Positions 96-59,232 of a stretch of 64,000 nt of DNA are shown piece by piece. The DNA comes from a virus (taxonomy: Duplodnaviria; Caudoviricetes), in IMG/VR virus record IMGVR_UViG_2718218393_000006, positions 32,001-96,000 of that record. One strand, written 5' to 3'. How positions within the stretch are numbered: position 1 is the stretch's first letter; every line of letters begins with the position of its first letter. A program made the position numbers and the translations under genes. The notes under the pieces are model-generated. The model searched no databases. It was not told the DNA's origin and saw nothing but the letters and a program-made list of their open reading frames with translations.

Positions 96-718
96 TGGCA
101 CACCCTCCGCTCAAACTCTTCCATCAGCACGGTGTGCAGATAGGACGGCGTGCCGTTGCGCGGGGTGGCGCTGATGCCGTCGCGCACCTGATAGGGCTTG
201 ATGGTGTTGGAGATGGACAGCTCGCGCATGGCCTCGGCCTGGGCGCGCAGCAGCACCAGCGGCGCGTCCCCGGCCGGGAGGGTGCCGCCCTGCTCGTCCA
301 GCGTGTGGCGCGCGCGGTAGCGGTAGCTGGCGGCGCTGCCCAGCAGGCCGATCTGGCGCGCGGACGGCGCCGGCATCAGGTACAGCACGCGGCGGTCGCC
401 GTCGCGGCTGACGCGCATGTCCGGCAGGCGGCCCGGCCAGCCGTCCGCCCACACCGGCAGGCGCGCCTTGTCCGCCCGGCCCCAGTCAAACGCCTGCACC
501 GCCACCAGATCCGCCGGGCAGTCGTACACAATGCGCTCGGCCTCCAGCTGCAGGCGGCCCAGCACGATCAGCGGCCGGCGGCGGCTGTAGTCGTCCAGCG
601 CCACCTGCAGCAGGCGCTGGAACTGCGCCAGGCTGCCCCGCTCCGGTTCGCGGTCGAACTCCTCCGCGGCGCCCAGCAGGCTGTCGCGCAAGGCCGTGGC
701 CAGGGCGGACAGGGTCAT
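92..718 (-). CDS. Phage head-completion/neck protein (putative)
   Basis: 208 aa ORF, translationally coupled, two genes downstream of capsid. Confidence 0.55.
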   Translation of the reverse strand: MTLSALATALRDSLLGAAEEFDREPERGSLAQFQRLLQVALDDYSRRRPLIVLGRLQLEAERIVYDCPADLVAVQAFDWGRADKARLPVWADGWPGRLPDMRVSRDGDRRVLYLMPAPSARQIGLLGSAASYRYRARHTLDEQGGTLPAGDAPLVLLRAQAEAMRELSISNTIKPYQVRDGISATPRNGTPSYLHTVLMEEFERRVCQ

Positions 719-1146
719 TTCTTCTTGCCCTTGGCCGCGGCGGTTTCGGCGGCGTCCGCGCCTGCGGCCTGGAGCTCGCCGCTGAGCTCGTCGTCCTGTT
801 CGTCCGAGCGCGCGCCGGGCAGGCCCAGCGCCTCGCTGGCCGCGGTGAGCAGGCGCTCGGACACGGCGGACAGCACGTCCTTGCGGCGGCCTTCGGCCTG
901 TTCGCGTTCGCCCAGCAGTTCCAGATCCTCGCGCGCCAGCACGGGGATGGCGGACAGCAGCTCATGCAGCGAGCCGGCCAGCAGCGAGTCCACGATGTGC
1001 ACGGGAGCGACGTCGTCCAGCGCCAGCTCCGCCGCGGCGTAGCCGGGCAGCATGGTGGCGTCCACCTCGCGGGTTTCGCCGGGCGGAATCAGCTGGGTGC
1101 CGACGGTTTTGTAGTGTTCGCTGTCGTTGTAGAAGGGGATTTTCAT
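715..1146 (-). CDS. Phage hypothetical protein downstream of capsid
   Basis: MKIPFYND... ORF coupled to the next gene; acidic/Ala-rich. Confidence 0.6.
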   Translation of the reverse strand: MKIPFYNDSEHYKTVGTQLIPPGETREVDATMLPGYAAAELALDDVAPVHIVDSLLAGSLHELLSAIPVLAREDLELLGEREQAEGRRKDVLSAVSERLLTAASEALGLPGARSDEQDDELSGELQAAGADAAETAAAKGKKK

Positions 1147-1191: not shown

Positions 1192-3759
1192 TTACAGGGC
1201 CGCGCGGGCGGCGCTGGAGTACACGATTACGCTGGTGAAGCGGTTGCGCACCACGCGCGGCACGGCGATGGCGTTGTATTCCTCGCCGTAGGCCTGCTTC
1301 TGGCCAATGGGGTGGCCGTCCGCGCCCACCATTTCGAACGGCTCGCCGGTGACGAAGGGCTTGGCGATGGTGTAGCCCAGCACGTTGCGCTGGCCCATCA
1401 GGATGCGCTCGTCGCCCAGGTCCACGCCCGGCGCGTTGGTGCCGAAGGCCGGCAGGTCTTTGATGCGGGCCAGATCGCCCTGGCTGTTGGTGTCGCTGCC
1501 GTCGCGCTTCTGGCTCACCACAAACTGCTCGGCGTTGGTGGCGGTGTCGTTCAGCGTGGGCGACATCAGCAGGAAGTCCGGCGCGATATAACGCTGGCCG
1601 CGCATCATGGCCTTGCGGTTGCCCACCTTCTGCAGCAGGCCGTTCAGCCATTTCTCTTGCGACACGCCGCCTTGCGGGTCCAGGTCGAACTTGGTGACGT
1701 TGGTGGCCACCGAGTAGCTGATGGCGTTGGTGCCGGTGGCGGCCGGGGCCACGGGCTGGCCGGCCTGGTCCACAAACTGCAGCGTGCCCAGGTTGAAGCT
1801 GAGCACCCGCCAGTAAGTGCCGGCCGGCTGCTTGCCGCTGCCGTCCCACTGCTTGATCTGCACGCTGTTCAGCGTGACGGTGATGGGGTTTTCCGGCAGG
1901 CCCACCGCGGCGCCCTGCAGGTCTCGCGCCTGGAAGGGGCGCACCACCGGCCACTGCGCCAGCTTGATCAGCGATTTGCCGCTGCCCAGCTGGGCAGCGA
2001 TGTTTTCGTTGCTCACCGACACGGCCAGATAGCTGTCCGCCGAGCGCTGCAGCTCGTTGCAGATGCGGCGCGCCACCAGCTCGCGCAGCACGCGGGCGTT
2101 GCTCTCGATGTTGCGGCCCAGCGCGTCCCAGTTCAGCGCGGAAGCGCGGGTGAAGAACTGCACTTCGTTGGTGATGGACAGCGCCAGCTTCATCGGGGTG
2201 ATGGACACGGTTTCCATCGCCTGGCGGATGCCGGCGTAAGGGATGGACTGGCCTTCGTAGACGATGCCTTCGTTCACCACCTGGCTGACGTCGCGCATCT
2301 CGTAAGGAATTTGCGTGGTGGCGGCGCCGGAAAAGTCGGTCAGCGTCTGCACCAGGGACAACACGTTGAGGTCGGACAACGCCTCGCGAATCACCTCGCG
2401 CTGTACGCCCAGCGGCAGCGCGGTGTTGCCCATGTCCACCGTGCCCTGCCCTTGCGCCAGCGCGCGGTATTCGGTTTCCAGCTGCGGCGCGTACATCCTG
2501 TCCAGCTGCGCCAACACCTTCTGGCAAAACGGCGGCAGTGTCTGCTTGGCGTCCAGGTGCAGCTGGCCGGCGGCGGACGACTTGGCCAGGTTCTCGCGGT
2601 AGAACTCAGACAGCTTCTTCACGCCGTCGGCGATCACCGTGATCTGCGGCGAGCCGGCCGGGGCGTAGCCCAGCGCAGACAGCTGGCGGGCGGCGGCCAG
2701 CTCGTTGGCGTGCTGGATCTGCATCTGCGCCAGCGCGCGCACCTGGTCGTCGGTGGTGTCGGCGGTGATCACGCCGGCGGCGGCCTCGGCAAGCGCCTTC
2801 TTGGCGGCATCGTCCAGGCCGGTGGCGGCATTGATGGTTTCCGCCAGCAGCTTGCGCTTGCCTTCGGTGATTTCGGCCAGCTGCTTGGCGGCGGTGTCCC
2901 GCTCGGCCAGCGCCTTGGCCACGGCCGCGCCGACGTCGGCCTGGTTCACGCTACCGCCGACGGACAGCTGGATCACCGGCGCCGGGCCGTTCGCCGGCAG
3001 CTTGGCCAGCTGCTCGGACAGCTGGATAGCCGCCTGCTCCAGCTGCTCGCACAGCTGCTTGGCCTGGGCTTCGTCGGTGATGCCTTCCAGCTGGGCCTCG
3101 GCCAGCGTTTTGACGGCGGCCACCGCCTGCTCGGACAGTTTGCGCGCGGCCAGGGCCTCCAGCAGCGCCTTCAGATACTTGTTCATCGTGGTTTTCGCCT
3201 CGGAAAGGAGAGTTCGCGCCAGCTCCGGGTGGAGCAGCAATGGGATGTCCGCGCCGGAATCGCACGACAGCGTGACGGGGTCCAGGCGCTTGATCACCGG
3301 ACGCACGGTGAGGCCTGCACCCAACAGGACGGGGCCGTGGAGCCGGCCCTGTTCGTTGTCCTGCCAGTTTTCGGAGAATTCAGCGGAGAGATAACGGAAG
3401 CCGCGGGCCTTGACCGCGTCGCGGCCAAAGTCGGTCCACTCCACCAGCGCGCGCAGCCGGCCGCCCTCCACCGCCAGCTTGCAGATCTTGGCGGCGGCGC
3501 CGTCACCGGGCTGGTGGTTCACGTCCAGGAAGATGTCCGTGCCCACCACGCCAGCGTCAAAGTTGCGGACCATGGCCAGCAGCATGTCGCGGGAGATCTC
3601 GAAGCGCCCATAGCGCGGATCGGAAAACGAGCCCTCCCGGGTGAGCGTCACCCAGCTGGTGGGTTTGGCGTCCGGCACATCGGCCATGCCGGCCAGCAAC
3701 CGGACCACTTGGCCCGGCTGGGGGTTTTCAGAGAGTTGGAAGTGTCGGGGTGCTTGCAT
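1192..3759 (-). CDS. Fused prohead protease (Mu gpI-like) / scaffold / major capsid protein
   Basis: 855 aa. N-terminal Mu-I-like motifs (IFLDVNH, VEWTDFG, FRYLSAEF, LLGAGLTVRP), Ala/Gln-rich helical middle, capsid-like C-terminal half. Confidence 0.8.
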   Translation of the reverse strand: MQAPRHFQLSENPQPGQVVRLLAGMADVPDAKPTSWVTLTREGSFSDPRYGRFEISRDMLLAMVRNFDAGVVGTDIFLDVNHQPGDGAAAKICKLAVEGGRLRALVEWTDFGRDAVKARGFRYLSAEFSENWQDNEQGRLHGPVLLGAGLTVRPVIKRLDPVTLSCDSGADIPLLLHPELARTLLSEAKTTMNKYLKALLEALAARKLSEQAVAAVKTLAEAQLEGITDEAQAKQLCEQLEQAAIQLSEQLAKLPANGPAPVIQLSVGGSVNQADVGAAVAKALAERDTAAKQLAEITEGKRKLLAETINAATGLDDAAKKALAEAAAGVITADTTDDQVRALAQMQIQHANELAAARQLSALGYAPAGSPQITVIADGVKKLSEFYRENLAKSSAAGQLHLDAKQTLPPFCQKVLAQLDRMYAPQLETEYRALAQGQGTVDMGNTALPLGVQREVIREALSDLNVLSLVQTLTDFSGAATTQIPYEMRDVSQVVNEGIVYEGQSIPYAGIRQAMETVSITPMKLALSITNEVQFFTRASALNWDALGRNIESNARVLRELVARRICNELQRSADSYLAVSVSNENIAAQLGSGKSLIKLAQWPVVRPFQARDLQGAAVGLPENPITVTLNSVQIKQWDGSGKQPAGTYWRVLSFNLGTLQFVDQAGQPVAPAATGTNAISYSVATNVTKFDLDPQGGVSQEKWLNGLLQKVGNRKAMMRGQRYIAPDFLLMSPTLNDTATNAEQFVVSQKRDGSDTNSQGDLARIKDLPAFGTNAPGVDLGDERILMGQRNVLGYTIAKPFVTGEPFEMVGADGHPIGQKQAYGEEYNAIAVPRVVRNRFTSVIVYSSAARAAL

Positions 3760-3887: not shown

Positions 3888-4832
3888 TCAATTTACGCTA
3901 TCCGGCTTTTCTTCTAACACAGCAGGGGCAATCTCACCTGAGTTATGAACTGAATTAGAGACACTATATCGACGCCTACTCAATGCCATCCCCCACATTG
4001 CACCAATAGCTTTAGCCTGGCTCGGCTCGAAACTTTCATCTGCCGGATATGATTTGGGATGCTTTCGCTTTTCCACCCACTTAAAAATATAGTACACAGC
4101 AAACATAAGCGGGATTACAATACCAAAAGCCAACATTCTCTTCAGCGCCTCAGGTACTTCACCGGGGTTTACAAACAATGTATCCCACGAATAATCCCTC
4201 AACAGCCAAACAACCCCTACAATAAGCGATATAGGGCAAAGAATCAGCATCGCCAACAAGAAAATTATTCCAATCCACTCACCAATGGGAAGCACTCCAT
4301 CATCGATATAAAAAGAAAAATCCTTATCCTGGCCAAAAATCCTTCCGCCAGCAGACAACTTCTTCTTGGGATAACCCTCTACAAAGAAGCCAATCTCCGC
4401 CCACTCACCTGCATTCACGCATTCGAAATCCAATTCAAATTTATTATTTTCCCTGGCAGAAACAGCAAGCCCAATTTCGCACCCATCCTTAAAAAAAACA
4501 GGTTCTCCCAACACTCCAACCTCGTCAGGAATCTTAATAAACAAAGGAGACTCCTTACTTATATCCTGCCTTACAACACAATCCTTCCCTCTATTCCAAA
4601 TTCTGACGCATATAAAATAAACATCACTAAGCTTCCTACCCGTTCTGTCTAAAACGTCAAATGGGCAAGCAGTGGCCGCCTCAATAATTATTCCGCGATT
4701 CATTACCTCAGCAACTAATTCTTTCTTCCTCTCCGTTTGCTTGGCTACAATCAAACTTGCCAAATAGCCAAGAAGTGCTCCCACAAACAAAAAAATGATA
4801 TCCCTTGTAAGTAAGCTCAGAATCCATTTCAT
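3888..4832 (-). CDS. Low-GC membrane protein (N-terminal TM, beta-rich domain, two C-terminal TMs); moron
   Basis: 314 aa, hydrophobic segments, AT-rich relative to flanks. Confidence 0.75.
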   Translation of the reverse strand: MKWILSLLTRDIIFLFVGALLGYLASLIVAKQTERKKELVAEVMNRGIIIEAATACPFDVLDRTGRKLSDVYFICVRIWNRGKDCVVRQDISKESPLFIKIPDEVGVLGEPVFFKDGCEIGLAVSARENNKFELDFECVNAGEWAEIGFFVEGYPKKKLSAGGRIFGQDKDFSFYIDDGVLPIGEWIGIIFLLAMLILCPISLIVGVVWLLRDYSWDTLFVNPGEVPEALKRMLAFGIVIPLMFAVYYIFKWVEKRKHPKSYPADESFEPSQAKAIGAMWGMALSRRRYSVSNSVHNSGEIAPAVLEEKPDSVN

Positions 4833-52590: not shown

Positions 52591-53261
52591 GCAGCCTCCC
52601 GCGGAGACGCTGAGCGCTGGTCGACCAGCTTCAGGATCTTGTCCGCTTGCTCCGCCCCCATCTCGTTCCGCTCCAACAGCGGTCGCGAGGAGCCGGCCAG
52701 CATGACAGTCTTGGCAATCGCAGGGCTGCCCAGCAGCATGGGTGGCTCGCAGCGCAACCTAGCCTTGCGGTTATCGGCTTCGAACTGGCCGATCATCACC
52801 GGCGGATACTCCGGCACCTCTTGCCGGCCGGCGAATGCACGGTAGCGGCTTTCGAAATCGCGTGCCACGAACGGCCAATCGTCCTCGGTTTTCGTGCCAA
52901 GTGCGATCCAGCCCCCCATCTCCGCCAGCGCGCGGTGGATCAGCGGGTCGTCGAACACGACACTGCGGTAGGTGCCGACGTGGCGCAGGGCCTTGTCGAC
53001 CTTGTGCCAGGCTTGCAGGGCCTTGTCCTGGCTGGAGCCGGCAGTCATGCGGATCAGGTCGGCCGGCTTGGGCATGAACTGGCCGTTGTCGGGGCTGGTG
53101 ACGTGGCGGTTCATGGCCTCACGGAACACGGCCAGGTCCAGATGCTTCAGGGCGTTCCAGTAGATCGTGATCGCGGGCGTCGTCAGCGGCTTGCCGTAAA
53201 GCTCGGCGACCGCCTGGAGCAGGCTGACGAATGTGTCGTAGTCGTTCTGTTGCATGGTCAT
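52587..53261 (-). CDS. Replication-associated protein (DUF6475-like, helicase-loader position)
   Basis: FMPKPADLI, SVVFDDPLIH...MGGW. Confidence 0.7.
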   Translation of the reverse strand: MTMQQNDYDTFVSLLQAVAELYGKPLTTPAITIYWNALKHLDLAVFREAMNRHVTSPDNGQFMPKPADLIRMTAGSSQDKALQAWHKVDKALRHVGTYRSVVFDDPLIHRALAEMGGWIALGTKTEDDWPFVARDFESRYRAFAGRQEVPEYPPVMIGQFEADNRKARLRCEPPMLLGSPAIAKTVMLAGSSRPLLERNEMGAEQADKILKLVDQRSASPREAA

Positions 53262-54064
53262 GCATCCGTAGGTTCGTCGCCAAAGAGCATCCGCTTAGCC
53301 TCTTCAGCAGCGGCACGGTTCTGTTCGGCAAGGGTTGGCTTGCCACCGGATGGGCGGCTGGATTGAGGGGTGTCACGGTGCAGCCATTCGGCCTTGAAGC
53401 CCTGCCAACCGCGCTCGGCGGAAATTTGGATCGCCTGGGCCAACGTCAGGCCGGCAATTGCGGCTTCGCGCTCGATGCCGGCAAGGGCGGTGGCAGTCAG
53501 CGGTGCGCGCTTGGCCTTGCGGATGAGCAAGAAGTCGGCGGCATGCAGAGGATCAACTCCCCTCAGTTTCAGGTCTTTGGCTGTAAGGGGCTTGCTATTT
53601 TCGTCGTCCGCGGACGCGGGCGGAGTACTGTTTTTACTACCATCTGTGTAACTATCTGGTAAGCCATCTGGTATAGGTTCGCCCTTCTGGGCGTTTCGTT
53701 TCGCCCGTTTGGGCGCTTCCATTTGCCCATTTGGGCAGATGAGATGCCCGTTCAGGAAAATGGATTCGTCCACGAAGGCATACCACAAAGTCCGGTCGTA
53801 GCCCTGGTCGTTGTAGTTGCCCTTCATGATCACGCCGTGGCGGACAAGGCTGTCTAAAACGCGGCGAATTTGCTTCTCAGACAGGTACGGGAACAGCTCG
53901 CCAAAGGCCTTGATGCTGTTGTATGTCCAAGTCCGTCCGTCGTAGAGGTGGCGCCCATTAGCCTTGTTCTTGGCAATCCAGAACGCCATGTTGTTGATGA
54001 ACACTGCCTCCTCTACGCCATACATGGCGGCATGGGCGATATCGAACGAGTGAACTACGCTCAT
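53258..54064 (-). CDS. Phage replication initiator (O-like)
   Basis: N-terminal winged helix (DGRTWTYNS...FPYLS), C-terminal WQGFKAEW; internal iterons. Confidence 0.8.
   Translation of the reverse strand: MSVVHSFDIAHAAMYGVEEAVFINNMAFWIAKNKANGRHLYDGRTWTYNSIKAFGELFPYLSEKQIRRVLDSLVRHGVIMKGNYNDQGYDRTLWYAFVDESIFLNGHLICPNGQMEAPKRAKRNAQKGEPIPDGLPDSYTDGSKNSTPPASADDENSKPLTAKDLKLRGVDPLHAADFLLIRKAKRAPLTATALAGIEREAAIAGLTLAQAIQISAERGWQGFKAEWLHRDTPQSSRPSGGKPTLAEQNRAAAEEAKRMLFGDEPTDA
53681..53757. repeat. Replication origin iterons GCCCnTTTGGGC-like x4
   Basis: Palindromic units start at 53681, 53703, 53725, 53746 (22, 22, 21 bp spacing) inside the initiator gene. Confidence 0.72.
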
Positions 54065-54226
54065 TCCCGCTTGCCTCCATCGGTATTCGTTGCCATAATT
54101 TCTCCTGATCTTGATTAACCCCCGCGAGGCCCGGCCAGGCCGTTGACCGGGGGTTTTTCTTTTCCTGCAAGACTGCGAGACCTGCCCTCTGATATGCTTA
54201 AATCCCATTTGCATACAGGAGGCTGT

Positions 54227-54454
54227 ATGAAGACCTTCATCAACAAAATCAGATACGACCACTCGAACGGATATGCAGCAGTGGAGTTAATGATTCCTGC
54301 CGATAACGACGAGCTCGGATCGGTGGTCACCATTGATGTAGAAATCCCCATCAACAAGGCCTATGAGTCGAGCTACGGCGTCCTCATGGAGATGGCTATC
54401 CGCGAGGCTTGTCGCCACCACGCTTGGCTCGATAAAGCGCTCCGCCCGGCCTAA
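54227..54454 (+). CDS. Hypothetical protein
   Basis: AGGAGG RBS; 75 aa. Confidence 0.55.
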   Translation: MKTFINKIRYDHSNGYAAVELMIPADNDELGSVVTIDVEIPINKAYESSYGVLMEMAIREACRHHAWLDKALRPA

Positions 54455-55383: not shown

Positions 55384-55638
55384 GGTTCGCAACATTTCCT
55401 TGAAAAGTGATCATTTTCAAAGGTTTAGTGCTTTGCCATACTTCACTCAGCACCAAGCCAGACCCGCTACAGCGCCTCGACCGGCTACCACCTTGGAGCG
55501 CGATGCGGGAGTTCTTTGACAACTGGATAAAACGCAAAGGAAATCCATAAATGCATGCACAAAGAAGTGGCGCCAGGCTGTCATACACACCGCAATCGTT
55601 GCAGCTATCGCAGGGAGCGAGTAAAGACGCACACGCAG

Positions 55639-55707
55639 AAAGAATAACAATTTGTTATTCTTTTAGCAATAACATTTTGGGAGTTCCAGGCAATAACAAT
55701 TTGCTGT
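55639..55707. promoter_or_regulatory. OR-like operator cluster (AATAACA-N3-TGTTATT)
   Basis: Perfect palindrome AAAGAATAACAA-T-TTGTTATTCTTT 55639-55663 plus degenerate copies at about 55668 and 55692. Confidence 0.75.
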
Positions 55708-55718
55708 CAAATCGCAGC

Positions 55719-56084
55719 ATGGAAAGTAAAGAATTTCGTCGTGCCAACTTGCTTGCCTTGATCGAGCAATATGGAACAATCAGGCACCTAGCCGAAAAGG
55801 TTGATGTGGCCCCAAACCATCTGAGCCTTGTGAAAAACCATGTAAGAAACATGGGGGATAAGCTTGCGCGTCGCATCGAGGAGGCTGTAGGAAAGCCAGT
55901 GGGCTGGATGGACTTGCCTCACGATGGTGGCGACTTGGACCTAGCCCAAGATGTGGCATCAGTTACGATCACAGCTCAGTCTGAAGAGGAGCTCGTGAAG
56001 CTCCTGCGCGAAAAGGGCGAAGCCTACGCGTTCGAACTGCTCCGCAAGGCATTCATGGAGCAGGAAAACAAAAAGGGCGACTGA
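55719..56084 (+). CDS. CI-like HTH repressor without S24 peptidase domain
   Basis: RRANLLAL...RNMGDKLARRIE...GWMD; divergent from the replication operon. Confidence 0.8.
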   Translation: MESKEFRRANLLALIEQYGTIRHLAEKVDVAPNHLSLVKNHVRNMGDKLARRIEEAVGKPVGWMDLPHDGGDLDLAQDVASVTITAQSEEELVKLLREKGEAYAFELLRKAFMEQENKKGD

Positions 56085-56480: not shown

Positions 56481-57233
56481 TTATTCGCATGCCCCGATCT
56501 TGTACATCAGCTGCTCTACAGTTGACGCCTCGTAAGTCTCCATCAGGCGTCCGATGTGGTAATCGATTGTGTAGACACTCTTGCCTAAAGCTGATGCCAC
56601 CTCTGCTCTTTTAAACCCTCGCTTACAATACAGATCGATTACGGTTTGCTGGATTTTGCTCGTTTTAGCAATTCGTGCGTTTGAGGCAAAAACTCTATGC
56701 GCGACCTCGGCCAGATCGGGAAGCAGCATTTCGAGCAAATCACGCAGCGCGCGGTCGTCTTCCACCTGGCGCCCAATCATCGACAGCACGTATCGAACAC
56801 CGCCGCCCTTATCGGCAATGTAGGTCAGGCCATGCGTTAGCTTGTGGTGCTCGCAATCAGAGACGAACCTCCGCTGCGCCTGGGTCAGGCCCTGGGCGTA
56901 GAGCCGCGTCGACCACACAACCGGCTCACCTGCGGACGCCCTCACAATGGGGTCAACCTTCACGTAACCACGCTCTACGTACCGCAGCAACCAATCCTCA
57001 GACCAGCCGTGATTTATGTACAGCGATGGCACCTTGGTCCCGTAGAACGTCGCCAACAGCGTCGGCGCACCGCCGGCTACCGTGCACACCAGAGCCAGGG
57101 CCGCGTCAAGATCATCGCGCGTCCGAGCACGCACCAGCATGCTGCGCAGCGCTGCAGCAGCGCAGATTGCTGCATTGATTCTGTTATTGGATATCGCCGC
57201 GACTTCCGGCAGCTGATCGATAGCTGTCGTCAT
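56481..57233 (-). CDS. LuxR-family AHL-binding transcriptional regulator (LuxR solo)
   Basis: W-xxx-Y (WLLRY), DP, W (VVWS) and G (THGL) of the autoinducer-binding domain; C-terminal LuxR HTH. Confidence 0.88.
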   Translation of the reverse strand: MTTAIDQLPEVAAISNNRINAAICAAAALRSMLVRARTRDDLDAALALVCTVAGGAPTLLATFYGTKVPSLYINHGWSEDWLLRYVERGYVKVDPIVRASAGEPVVWSTRLYAQGLTQAQRRFVSDCEHHKLTHGLTYIADKGGGVRYVLSMIGRQVEDDRALRDLLEMLLPDLAEVAHRVFASNARIAKTSKIQQTVIDLYCKRGFKRAEVASALGKSVYTIDYHIGRLMETYEASTVEQLMYKIGACE

Positions 57234-57297
57234 GAGTCCTCCCCGTCTATTCAAGGTAGGACATTTCAACGACGCAGAAAACCGCGCCGCCGATTTC

Positions 57298-57633
57298 TCA
57301 GCGTGCGGTGGTCAGTAGCCGCTGCACCAGGCGCCAGACTTCGTCCGGCCCTTTGCTCAGCATTTGCTCAGCTACATCTTCCAGCGAGTCCGCAGAGACG
57401 TAAGGGGCCTCCGTGCTCGCCAAGGGCGTCTTACGCCCCTTGCCTGTCTCCAGCCATGTCAGCGAGACCCCCAGCGCCTTCGCAATGCCCGGCAGCTTGG
57501 CAGACTCGCGATTGCGACCATTCTCCAGGTCAGCAACTATCGACCGACTGCAACCGGCCCGCCGGCCAAGATCTTCCTGGCGCCAGCCGCGGCGCATGCG
57601 CTCGGCCCTGATTCGATCACCTCTTACATTCAT
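57298..57633 (-). CDS. XRE-family HTH regulator
   Basis: GDRIRAER...QEDLG...LENG...IAKALGVSLTWLETG. Confidence 0.85.
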   Translation of the reverse strand: MNVRGDRIRAERMRRGWRQEDLGRRAGCSRSIVADLENGRNRESAKLPGIAKALGVSLTWLETGKGRKTPLASTEAPYVSADSLEDVAEQMLSKGPDEVWRLVQRLLTTAR

Positions 57634-57652
57634 GCCGCATTGTCGATTACGG

Positions 57653-57685
57653 CAGAGATGCCATGGCACCATTCAGAGATGGCAT
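57653..57685. promoter_or_regulatory. Putative operator of the xre-luxR operon
   Basis: CAGAGATG(C/G)CAT repeated 21 bp apart. Confidence 0.4.
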
Positions 57686-57703
57686 TACATCACAATCGGG
57701 CGC

Positions 57704-57728
57704 AAAAAAGCCCGCGTGAGCGGGCTTG
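57704..57728 (-). terminator. Intrinsic terminator downstream of the ParA-like gene
   Basis: AAGCCCGC-loop-GCGGGCTT + T-tract on the minus strand. Confidence 0.7.
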
Positions 57729-57890
57729 TTGCGGGCGCCAGGTGTTTTTATCTGAACGGGTGGGCTCAGCCTGGGCTTGAGGTGAGTCTGCCGGTGGTGG
57801 CCGGCGCGGTCAAGACAAAGGAAAACCCGCCGGAGCGGGTTAGGGAAATTGGCAAGTATATTTTGCCGCTTCAAGCGGAAGGATTGTAAA

Positions 57891-58928
57891 TTACAACACA
57901 CTAACTAAATAGGCCAACTCTCTCTGGTAGCGGGTAACAGACGAATTTACTTGAAGCCTCTTCCCTTCCACAGTATGAAAACCACCTATTTGAAGCTTTG
58001 AAATAGGGATGCTTTTTGCACCACTAATTCGACCTGAAGAAACGAAATCATCAGTTAGAACAAATGCATCCGCAGGATCTGACACATCAAAAGCATGATA
58101 AAATTTTTCTGCAATTGAAAGCGCACGCTCGACATACATTTTTGATGCTCTATCAGGCGTGGAACGTATTCGACTTTTCGAACCTACCATTGTCATGACA
58201 ATTGCAGCTACTTTAGGCACTGACAATCCCCCAGCACGTTCATTCCATACCGCAAAATCTCGCTTATTATTATGAAGCATATCCAACGTAAGCTCCAGCG
58301 ACTCAATAGAGTGCTCGTCTACTCGCACAGGTATAACCAATGCGTCTGCAGCACACCATGCAAGATGGGTTCCGCCCGCATAAAATGGGCTTGTATCGAT
58401 GAGAACGCCTTCAGCTTTTTTTTCTTTTGCCTCTTCCGCTAGAACATTTTTCAAGCTCTCCAGCAAAGACTTCACAGCTTTGGGATTGCTTTGCGAGTGC
58501 GCCAGCTGCAGCTGCTGATAAAGTGTCGAAGGAAATGCAAACATTTCAGCATCTCCAGGAACAACATAGCTCGGCTTTGTTGTTTTAAAAGCACCACAAT
58601 ATTGAGAAACTCTATATGAAAGATCAGATGGCTTTTCACCAAATGCAGGACCAAGCAGTACAGGCTGCAAGCCCTTTAGAATAGTCACCTCTGGAGTTTC
58701 ATCACGCATTAGAGTTTCACTCAGATTGCACTGAGGGCAAACATCTGCGACAAGCATTGGCCTTCTGATACTCATTTCAAATGCCAAATTGAAGCTAAGC
58801 GTGGACTTGCCGACACCACCTCGTAGTGTAGTGACGGCATAGTTTTTGTATTTTAAATCTCCCGCTCTGACGAAGCCTTCTTCCACGACTTTTCGATGCG
58901 TTTCAAAGATTTTATCCAGGCCACCCAT
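57891..58928 (-). CDS. Orphan ParA/MinD-family ATPase (345 aa), low GC
   Basis: LRGGVGKST, ADVCPQCNLS, LIDTSP, ADALVIPV; no ParB partner. Confidence 0.85.
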   Translation of the reverse strand: MGGLDKIFETHRKVVEEGFVRAGDLKYKNYAVTTLRGGVGKSTLSFNLAFEMSIRRPMLVADVCPQCNLSETLMRDETPEVTILKGLQPVLLGPAFGEKPSDLSYRVSQYCGAFKTTKPSYVVPGDAEMFAFPSTLYQQLQLAHSQSNPKAVKSLLESLKNVLAEEAKEKKAEGVLIDTSPFYAGGTHLAWCAADALVIPVRVDEHSIESLELTLDMLHNNKRDFAVWNERAGGLSVPKVAAIVMTMVGSKSRIRSTPDRASKMYVERALSIAEKFYHAFDVSDPADAFVLTDDFVSSGRISGAKSIPISKLQIGGFHTVEGKRLQVNSSVTRYQRELAYLVSVL

Positions 58929-58970
58929 TTTAGCTTCCCCAAATGTTGAGTTTGTACGGCAGACGAGTTG

Positions 58971-58999
58971 AGCATAGCATGCAGGTGGTGCAGGTGCAA
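58971..58999 (-). promoter_or_regulatory. Sigma70-type promoter of the ParA-like gene, embedded in the proximal repeat
   Basis: TTGCAC-17 bp-TATGCT with extended TGn. Confidence 0.6.
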
Positions 59000-59134
59000 C
59001 GAAGAAGTGCAGGTGGTGCAGGTGAAACGAAGAAGTGCAGGTGGTGCAGGTGCAACGAATAAGTGCAGGTGATGCAGGTGAAACGAAGAAGTGCAGGTGG
59101 CGCAGGTGCAACGAAGAAGTGCAGGTGGTGCAGG
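58980..59134. repeat. Tandem array of 5.5 x 28 bp: TGCAGGTGGTGCAGGTG(C/A)AACGAAGAAG
   Basis: Units start at 58980, 59008, 59036, 59064, 59092, 59120. Confidence 0.95.
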
Positions 59135-59232
59135 AGTTGACGGTAAAAATAAAGAGAGCACTCAACTGCGCCAAGCCTCGGCCGGTTCATCACCATTCAA
59201 GTGGCGGGGCAGAGATTGGGCTCCGACACCTG

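Follow-up and report, generated by a model that had tools for sequence, protein, structure and literature searches.

Short direct repeats phased over the promoter of a segregation-type ATPase gene occur in type Ib and type II plasmid partition loci, such as parC-parMR of R1, parH-parFG of TP228 and the omega heptads upstream of delta in pSM19035. ParA-type ATPases are understood as two-part machines, which need a ParB-like adaptor to find their cargo. Here we describe a locus within a 64,000-nucleotide stretch of DNA (the window, meaning this whole stretch; bases 32001-96000 of the 110,355-base IMG/VR provirus record IMGVR_UViG_2718218393_000006) in which the gene of a 345-amino-acid ParA/Soj-fold ATPase (57891..58928, minus strand; P0001) is preceded by a 5.5 x 28-bp tandem array (58980..59134, minus strand). 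The family to which this ATPase belongs appears to do without a ParB-like adaptor, carrying its own conserved and precisely phased DNA site. We consider it probable that the iteron array, promoter and ATPase gene form a self-contained, mobile one-gene cassette, whose product binds the repeats and represses its own promoter.

The cassette resembles the type Ib and type II partition loci in this layout and, by analogy, in a likely autoregulation through the same repeats, and the structural matches of the ATPase include both Soj and the delta protein (2oze). It differs from them in having no separate centromere-binding protein, in carrying Arg in place of the signature Lys, and in occupying prophage accessory slots and IS1 elements, not plasmids. 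Type Ia ParA proteins, such as P1 ParA and F SopA, repress their own operon at an operator, and the ATPase described here would likewise, in our proposal, bind to a specific site at the promoter of its gene. However, the type Ia proteins possess an N-terminal winged helix-turn-helix (HTH) region of ~100 amino acids, whereas in the AlphaFold2 (AF2) model of our ATPase only one helix (residues 3-17) lies ahead of the first strand and the P-loop, with the Walker A motif beginning at residue 36, and there is no ParB. The NCBIfam models for SopA and RepA score 19.8 and 23.7 against it, with cut-offs of 725 and 348, respectively.

Several members of the family were named BcsQ by JGI. BcsQ (YhjQ), known from cellulose secretion, is a protein of the MinD/ParA class that carries Arg at the signature-Lys position. 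The corresponding model, TIGR03371, gives the ATPase 29.9 bits where its cut-off is 157.85, the BcsQ chains come no higher than ranks 45-47 among the Foldseek matches, and no bcs genes were found near the window's gene. With lambda rexAB and other accessory genes expressed in lysogens the cassette shares a slot directly after cI (in several prophages), a self-contained transcription unit and a foreign G+C content, although RexA and RexB have no sequence or fold relation to the ATPase. We know of no exclusion phenotype for this cassette.

The repeat array and its ATPase family

Tandem Repeats Finder reports the array with a period of 28, 5.5 copies, 92% matches and a score of 275, and a separate repeat search found six copies at the 28 spacing. 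On the minus strand, which is the strand of the gene, the array holds 12 CCTGC boxes at spacings alternating between 9 and 19 nt, 11 of these boxes being CACCTGC, and the repeat unit reads CACCTGC-ac-CACCTGC-acttcttcgtt(g/t). The array of 5.5 units with 11 heptamers that had been claimed in a first-pass annotation of the window is thereby confirmed. The same annotation described a 56-bp higher-order repeat arising from a C/A alternation at position 18 of the plus-strand unit; the alternation is present, as cgttG/cgttT on the gene strand, but other differences between the units make the higher order imperfect. A second 56-bp higher-order repeat was seen in two homologous loci (L020 and L021), where, in the 180 nt upstream of the gene, alternate 28-bp units come with and without a TTGACC -35-like word, comparable to the cgttG/cgttT alternation of the window.

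The paired-box pattern CCTGCANNNCCTGCA has no further occurrence across the 110,355-base provirus record. The same heptamer at the same 9-bp pitch as in the window's box pairs was observed at the left end (1-175) of Acidovorax phage ACF1 (L002, MZ547449), as 19.4 tandem copies of GTGCAGGTG annotated within a hypothetical coding sequence; a homologue of the ParA-like gene was not detected there. In the window, a TTG-start open reading frame (ORF) of 427 amino acids (57891-59174, minus strand) runs in frame across the whole array into the ParA-like gene. We take this extension to be probably due to chance, since 28 is not a multiple of 3 and the homologues as a rule lack such extensions.

A phmmer search over 1.84 billion representatives returned only 437 proteins at E up to 1e-3, while a word-indexed search gave 988 clusters at E up to 1e-10. 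Among the latter, the top 120 are all full-length (344-393 amino acids, mostly 345), at least 70% identical and derived from several phyla. Judged by sequence, the ATPase is a member of a compact, divergent branch of ParA. We collected 10 loci from genomes and IMG/VR, 80 from metagenomes and 79 more from IMG/VR. Every locus of the first two sets with enough upstream DNA (84 of 84) has at least 3 sense-strand CCTGC boxes within 200 nt upstream of the gene, the mean being 6.0 boxes per 200 nt, whereas the remainder of the loci has 0.36 and the antisense strand 0.45. Among the 79 loci of the further IMG/VR set, every member at 57% identity or more has a CCTGC array. In all, the CCTGC class comprises 134 of 162 loci, corresponding to the clade at 57% identity or more, and all 134 carry at least 3 sense-strand upstream boxes.

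The spacing between successive boxes is quantised at 9 nt (121 cases), 19 nt (196 cases) and 28 nt (36 cases). The conserved core of the box is CCTGC, followed by A in 68% of boxes, and at least one box lies between the -35 and -10 elements of the best promoter-like site in 87 of the 101 upstream regions scored; a recurrent promoter layout among the homologues is TTGnnCCTGCannnCCTGCaTGnTAnnnT. Over 119 distinct upstream regions the number of boxes ranges from 3 to 12. The near-identical units of the window suggest that the basic unit of the family was amplified locally, because its 12 boxes are the maximum whereas its nearest relative (L005, 82% identity) has 5. Between the window's gene and its homologues the proportion of synonymous differences (pS) is 0.80-0.95, which is saturated, and that of nonsynonymous differences (pN) 0.13-0.25. 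Synonymous sites being saturated while the non-coding boxes persist, it follows that selection has maintained the boxes. The repeated site adjoining the gene is, then, present and conserved across the family.

Divergent clades were sampled from IMG/VR, and the comparison between clades draws on ~28 divergent loci in 3-4 clades. At 40-45% identity, three loci (L162, L165 and L167) have, instead of CCTGC, TAGACA-N4-GTCG iterons within 110 nt upstream, again with a 28-bp period. The clade at 34-35% identity and its relatives on Aeromonas plasmids carry AGTTCCAC/GGAACT-type elements, and the loci L153-L160 show AACTG-type words upstream as a weak signal. A scan of viral contigs with a divergent representative (P0141) gave no match. 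On a quick maximum-likelihood tree of 83 non-redundant proteins, the CCTGC label requires 2 changes, compared with a mean of 14.2 when labels are shuffled, and none of 500 shuffles was as low; the branch to the divergent set has 100% support and the TAGACA clade 99%. The type of repeat thus appears to follow the protein tree, with the cis-site changing along with the protein clade. Spacing architecture is also distributed by clade, with 9/19 alternation in the 36-row clade that includes the window and pure 19-bp spacing in the clade of the Escherichia coli type and in another viral clade. The first-pass annotation had suggested looking for such arrays ahead of homologues; they are there, and their type changes with the clade of the protein.

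The ATPase matches the Pfam families AAA_31 (46.9 bits, with a cut-off of 27) and CbiA, as well as PHROG 164, 'ParA-like partition protein' (E 1.6e-36); a search of the ESM Atlas returned generic ParA names only. In the AF2 model (pLDDT 94.6, pTM 0.93) the protein is predicted to adopt the Soj/MinD-type fold of the ParA/MinD (deviant Walker A, SIMIBI) class. The best Foldseek matches were Soj (2bek), HpSoj (6iub, including the DNA complex), ParA (8ray) and McdA, with a probability of 1.0 and, for the first three, a TM-score by target of ~0.8, and the ~95 residues that the ATPase has in addition are insertions that form no separate domain. The ATPase is probably active, because K41 of the P-loop, D62 of Walker A' and D178 of Walker B are invariant in 35 diverse members. 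The substitution of Arg for the signature Lys, which the first-pass annotation had pointed out, was confirmed as R36 in the Walker A motif LRGGVGKST. This Arg is invariant in a 12-sequence alignment of the CCTGC clade, while distant members have R, C, S, E or K at the position and proteins of the phi297 type keep Lys.

A conserved C-terminal beta-hairpin, FHxVEGKRLQVN (residues 317-328), contains a further set of clade-specific positions: R324, Q326 and N328, on alternate hairpin positions, are invariant in the same 12-sequence alignment and different in clades with other repeats. For this reason the R-x-Q-x-N hairpin is a candidate for the DNA reader. It presumably resembles the base-reading beta-strands of ribbon-helix-helix (RHH) proteins, a likeness that we take as a lead only.

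Boundaries, carriers and genomic slots

A putative promoter was read from the sequence at 58971..58999 (minus strand), with a -35 element TTGCAC (58999-58994), a 17-nt spacer holding the two proximal boxes, a TG at 58979-58978 and a -10 element TATGCT (58976-58971). Upstream of the array lies a terminator-like hairpin followed by a T run (59157..59172, minus strand), which comes from a consensus scan and the sequence and is proposed to shield the cassette against transcription from upstream. A second terminator-like hairpin, from the consensus scan, lies ~50 nt past the stop codon (57824..57841, minus strand) and closes the cassette on its downstream side. At the nucleotide level, the window resembles the other loci only in the gene, in three cases together with the array (L003, L011 and L006), and the similarity stops at or within ~25 nt of the stop codon.

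Clustering the ORFs within 2.5 kb of the gene yielded no universal neighbour among the clustered loci, including any ParB, adaptor or RHH-type centromere-binding protein; the array and the ATPase gene are the only constant parts of the cassette. Two proteins recur in part of the loci. A divergent IS1-family transposase (Pfam DDE_Tnp_IS1 plus HTH) is present in 24 of the 59 loci having at least 1.3 kb of upstream sequence, and in such loci the array is placed between divergent promoters. The other is a basic protein of ~75 amino acids without a Pfam match (MPKGPRG...KGGKARA..LTPEQRSEIAKKAAxxRW), found in 29 of 93 loci and mostly convergent, with its stop codon beside that of the ParA-like gene (for example at 4035-4274, minus strand, in L020; 4035-4265, minus strand, in L030; and 2620-2847, plus strand, in L084). 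Both are absent from the window, from Ralstonia phage RsoM1USA and from the E. coli prophage, all of which keep the boxes.

In three loci we delimited an IS1-family element of ~2.7 kb with 24-28-bp terminal inverted repeats GGTAGTG...TTTGAAAT (L029, 3-2719; L030, 1913-4585; L080, 1866-4549). Between the inverted repeats lie the genes for the transposase and the ATPase, the array and ~500 nt more, and the element also carries the gene for the small basic protein; from this arrangement the cassette in these loci is read as a passenger of an IS1-type element. Overall, an IS1-family element encloses the cassette in ~40% of the metagenome loci. No transposase was found within 2.5 kb of the window's gene, and the cassette is not an IS1 passenger here.

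Elsewhere the cassette occupies a series of prophage positions. It lies directly after the cI-type repressor, in the position of lambda rexAB, in E. coli CP027766 (5 boxes at 19 bp) and in L106, L109 and L126, and a distant homologue takes the same slot in phage phi297. Other copies lie after the antiterminator Q (L107), after the tail assembly chaperone (L133), and next to the integrase or attP (L150 and RsoM1USA). In RsoM1USA a TATAAT is surrounded by five CCTGC boxes, of which three read CACCTGC. A DUF3800 gene (348-1118, minus strand) of this phage (L001) stands beside the ParA-like gene in the interval from attP to the end of the genome, so that the two make up a two-gene accessory region. 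Our literature search found no published description of the cassette, the sole mention being in the RsoM1USA paper, where the gene is named merely 'ParA family protein' (PMC6389784).

The cassette was found in 5 of 5,426 complete E. coli genomes; WP_021568301 is an E. coli prophage relative of the window's protein. The hosts of its carriers include Pseudomonadota, Acidobacteriota, Verrucomicrobia and Peptococcaceae. Residence on a low-copy replicon, as for type I partition, is not what we observed: the window belongs to an integrated provirus.

Proposed mode of action and competing explanations

According to the explanation we favour, the ATP-bound dimer of the ATPase would itself recognise the CCTGCA boxes, one dimer occupying each 28-bp unit through two half-sites 9 bp apart. 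Cooperative assembly of the dimers along the array would then yield a helical filament of protein and DNA. By helical arithmetic each 28-bp step would turn by ~-120 degrees, three units making eight helical turns, so that the assembly would be a left-handed filament. This filament would cover the -35 and -10 elements and thereby shut off its own promoter, and an array of 5.5 units, such as that of the window, might make the assembly more cooperative or let the DNA retain more protein. The first-pass annotation had listed an operator or centromere bound by the ATPase among its readings of the array; this suggestion gains support from the arrays of the homologues and from the change of array with clade. 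Given the range of 3 to 12 boxes, and the 12 of the window compared with the 5 of L005, tuning by gain or loss of units is plausible as well.

Several observations weigh against this explanation. The repeats are direct, and a ParA dimer with two-fold symmetry would not be expected to read such repeats, even though their TGCA core is palindromic. Foldseek detected no separate DNA-binding domain in the ATPase. The pure 19-bp arrays of some clades are a misfit with a simple model of one dimer per 28 bp, and the covariation between repeat and protein involves few divergent loci. The TTGCAC-17-TATGCT promoter of the first-pass annotation exists as a sequence, with a TG before its -10, but it matches only 7 of 12 consensus positions and a consensus promoter scanner called no site there, so that the predicted promoter is weak by consensus. 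The small basic protein could be the binder of the boxes in the loci that have it. Finally, among the 5027 models of PADLOC-DB 2.0 the ATPase matched 0 families at E up to 1, and a role in defence thus receives no direct support from this quarter.

If the boxes were bound by another factor, such as the small basic protein, the IS1 transposase or a host protein, the ATPase would be no more than regulated cargo. The recurrence of the basic protein and of the HTH-containing transposase beside the cassette, together with an ATPase in which no DNA-reading domain is recognisable, would fit such an arrangement. Yet boxes are kept where both proteins are missing (in the window, RsoM1USA and the E. coli prophage), the type of repeat changes with the clade of the ATPase, and any host protein in this role would need to occur in Pseudomonadota, Acidobacteriota, Verrucomicrobia and Peptococcaceae alike, so that we regard another binder as quite improbable. 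We give almost no credence to two further suggestions of the first-pass annotation, namely a repeat RNA that restrains a toxic ATPase in the manner of a type III toxin-antitoxin system, and a decoy or sensor for restriction-modification of the AarI type. The former drew on tandem repeats ahead of a single gene and the latter on CACCTGC being the AarI (PaqCI) site. The toxin-antitoxin reading fails because the array, as RNA, is less structured than its shuffled versions (z +1.46) and lies mostly upstream of the predicted promoter, only the proximal pair of boxes overlapping it; in IS1 loci the array stands between divergent promoters, and the protein has the predicted fold of Soj, not that of a ToxN-type RNase. 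The AarI reading fails as well, since what the family conserves is CCTGC(A) and not the heptamer, whose completing CA occurs in only about half of the boxes.

Binding of the array by the ATPase could serve more than one output. With the array as a centromere that the ATPase binds and bridges to the nucleoid, the cassette would be a minimal module for partition or tethering, working as a type I par system with a single protein to stabilise or position an excised or replicating prophage or transposon. Type Ib and type II par loci likewise have an iteron array over the promoter of a ParA-type gene, Soj and ParA are the closest folds, PHROG 164 carries a partition-protein annotation, and the 28-bp pitch, kept across clades with different motifs, suggests a structural assembly. 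The family is nevertheless nearly absent from plasmids (5 of 72,556 plasmid records, all of the distant 34% clade); the three of these five records that were examined each have their own canonical parA with a small gene. Partition is not needed by the carriers, namely integrated prophages with integrases and IS1-type elements, and no ParB or adaptor that could stimulate the ATPase is conserved. We therefore hold partition to be unlikely.

Exclusion or anti-phage defence offers a different output, in which the array-bound ATPase of a lysogen would act as a poised reservoir or sensor, titrated off, for example, by incoming DNA, and directed against superinfecting phages or plasmids. An accessory function of this kind is favoured by the slots in which the cassette sits, by its autonomous transcription unit and foreign G+C, and by its carriage on insertion sequence (IS) elements. 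The slots after cI (CP027766, L106, L109, L126 and, likewise, phi297), after Q, after the tail chaperone and by integrase or attP are classical accessory positions, which makes an anti-phage role plausible; a putative promoter of its own, flanking terminator-like hairpins, low G+C, passage on IS elements and cargo status on small plasmids point the same way. Context by itself is no proof of function, however, and neither Pfam nor Foldseek revealed an effector domain beyond the ATPase, the PADLOC models are silent, and to our knowledge no ParA-type defence protein has been described. As a specific account of the cassette, defence of the lysogen is thus possible, if doubtful; from the genomic contexts, exclusion of or defence against incoming DNA still ranks somewhat higher in probability than a role in tethering or segregating the DNA of the element itself.

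The one-gene cassette with an ATPase that binds its own repeats remains our preferred explanation. One may tentatively go further, to a one-protein ParA that reads sequence through its C-terminal hairpin, with the 28-bp pitch kept while the motifs change, and whose DNA-anchored filament would be a new exclusion or DNA-tethering device of prophages and transposons in many phyla. That a single gene under strong purifying selection has spread through prophage slots as well as IS1-type transposons, in at least five phyla, is an argument that its function is general and selectable. The ATPase would provide a compact model for sequence-specific assembly of ParA on DNA if it is itself the reader of the repeats, and if its output is exclusion or defence, it would represent a new protein class in prophage-encoded immunity. 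The version found in the rexAB position of an E. coli lambdoid prophage makes this question directly testable in a standard laboratory system.

Surroundings of the cassette in the window

The ATPase gene has a G+C content of 44% overall and of 41-46% along its length, with 0.35 at third codon positions, while its flanks are at ~60%. This agrees with the low-GC, stand-alone gene of the first-pass annotation, the provirus as a whole being at ~60% G+C. The lack of a ParB, also claimed there, holds at the locus, where the neighbours are an HTH_3 protein (57298-57672, minus strand) and a protein with an autoinducer-binding domain (Autoind_bind) and no ParB-like gene is adjacent, and it holds for the homologous loci, in which no ParB partner is conserved. 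The placement in an immunity region stood in part. A CI-like regulator (55551-56084, plus strand) and a replication initiator (53258-54262, minus strand) are nearby, placing the cassette next to the switch region, but the ATPase gene is convergent with the CI-like gene and not co-transcribed with it.

Two ORFs downstream of the ATPase gene were considered as partners and set aside. The HTH_3 gene is not conserved beside the homologues. The convergent ORF at 57413-57889 (plus strand) is unrelated to the small basic protein of the other loci and overlaps the HTH_3 gene, which is real. Adjoining the HTH_3 regulator is a gene (56481-57269, minus strand) for a prophage protein of 262 amino acids, whose sole Pfam match is to the LuxR-type autoinducer-binding domain (E 1.8e-15), and this protein may be a phage-encoded receptor for a quorum signal.

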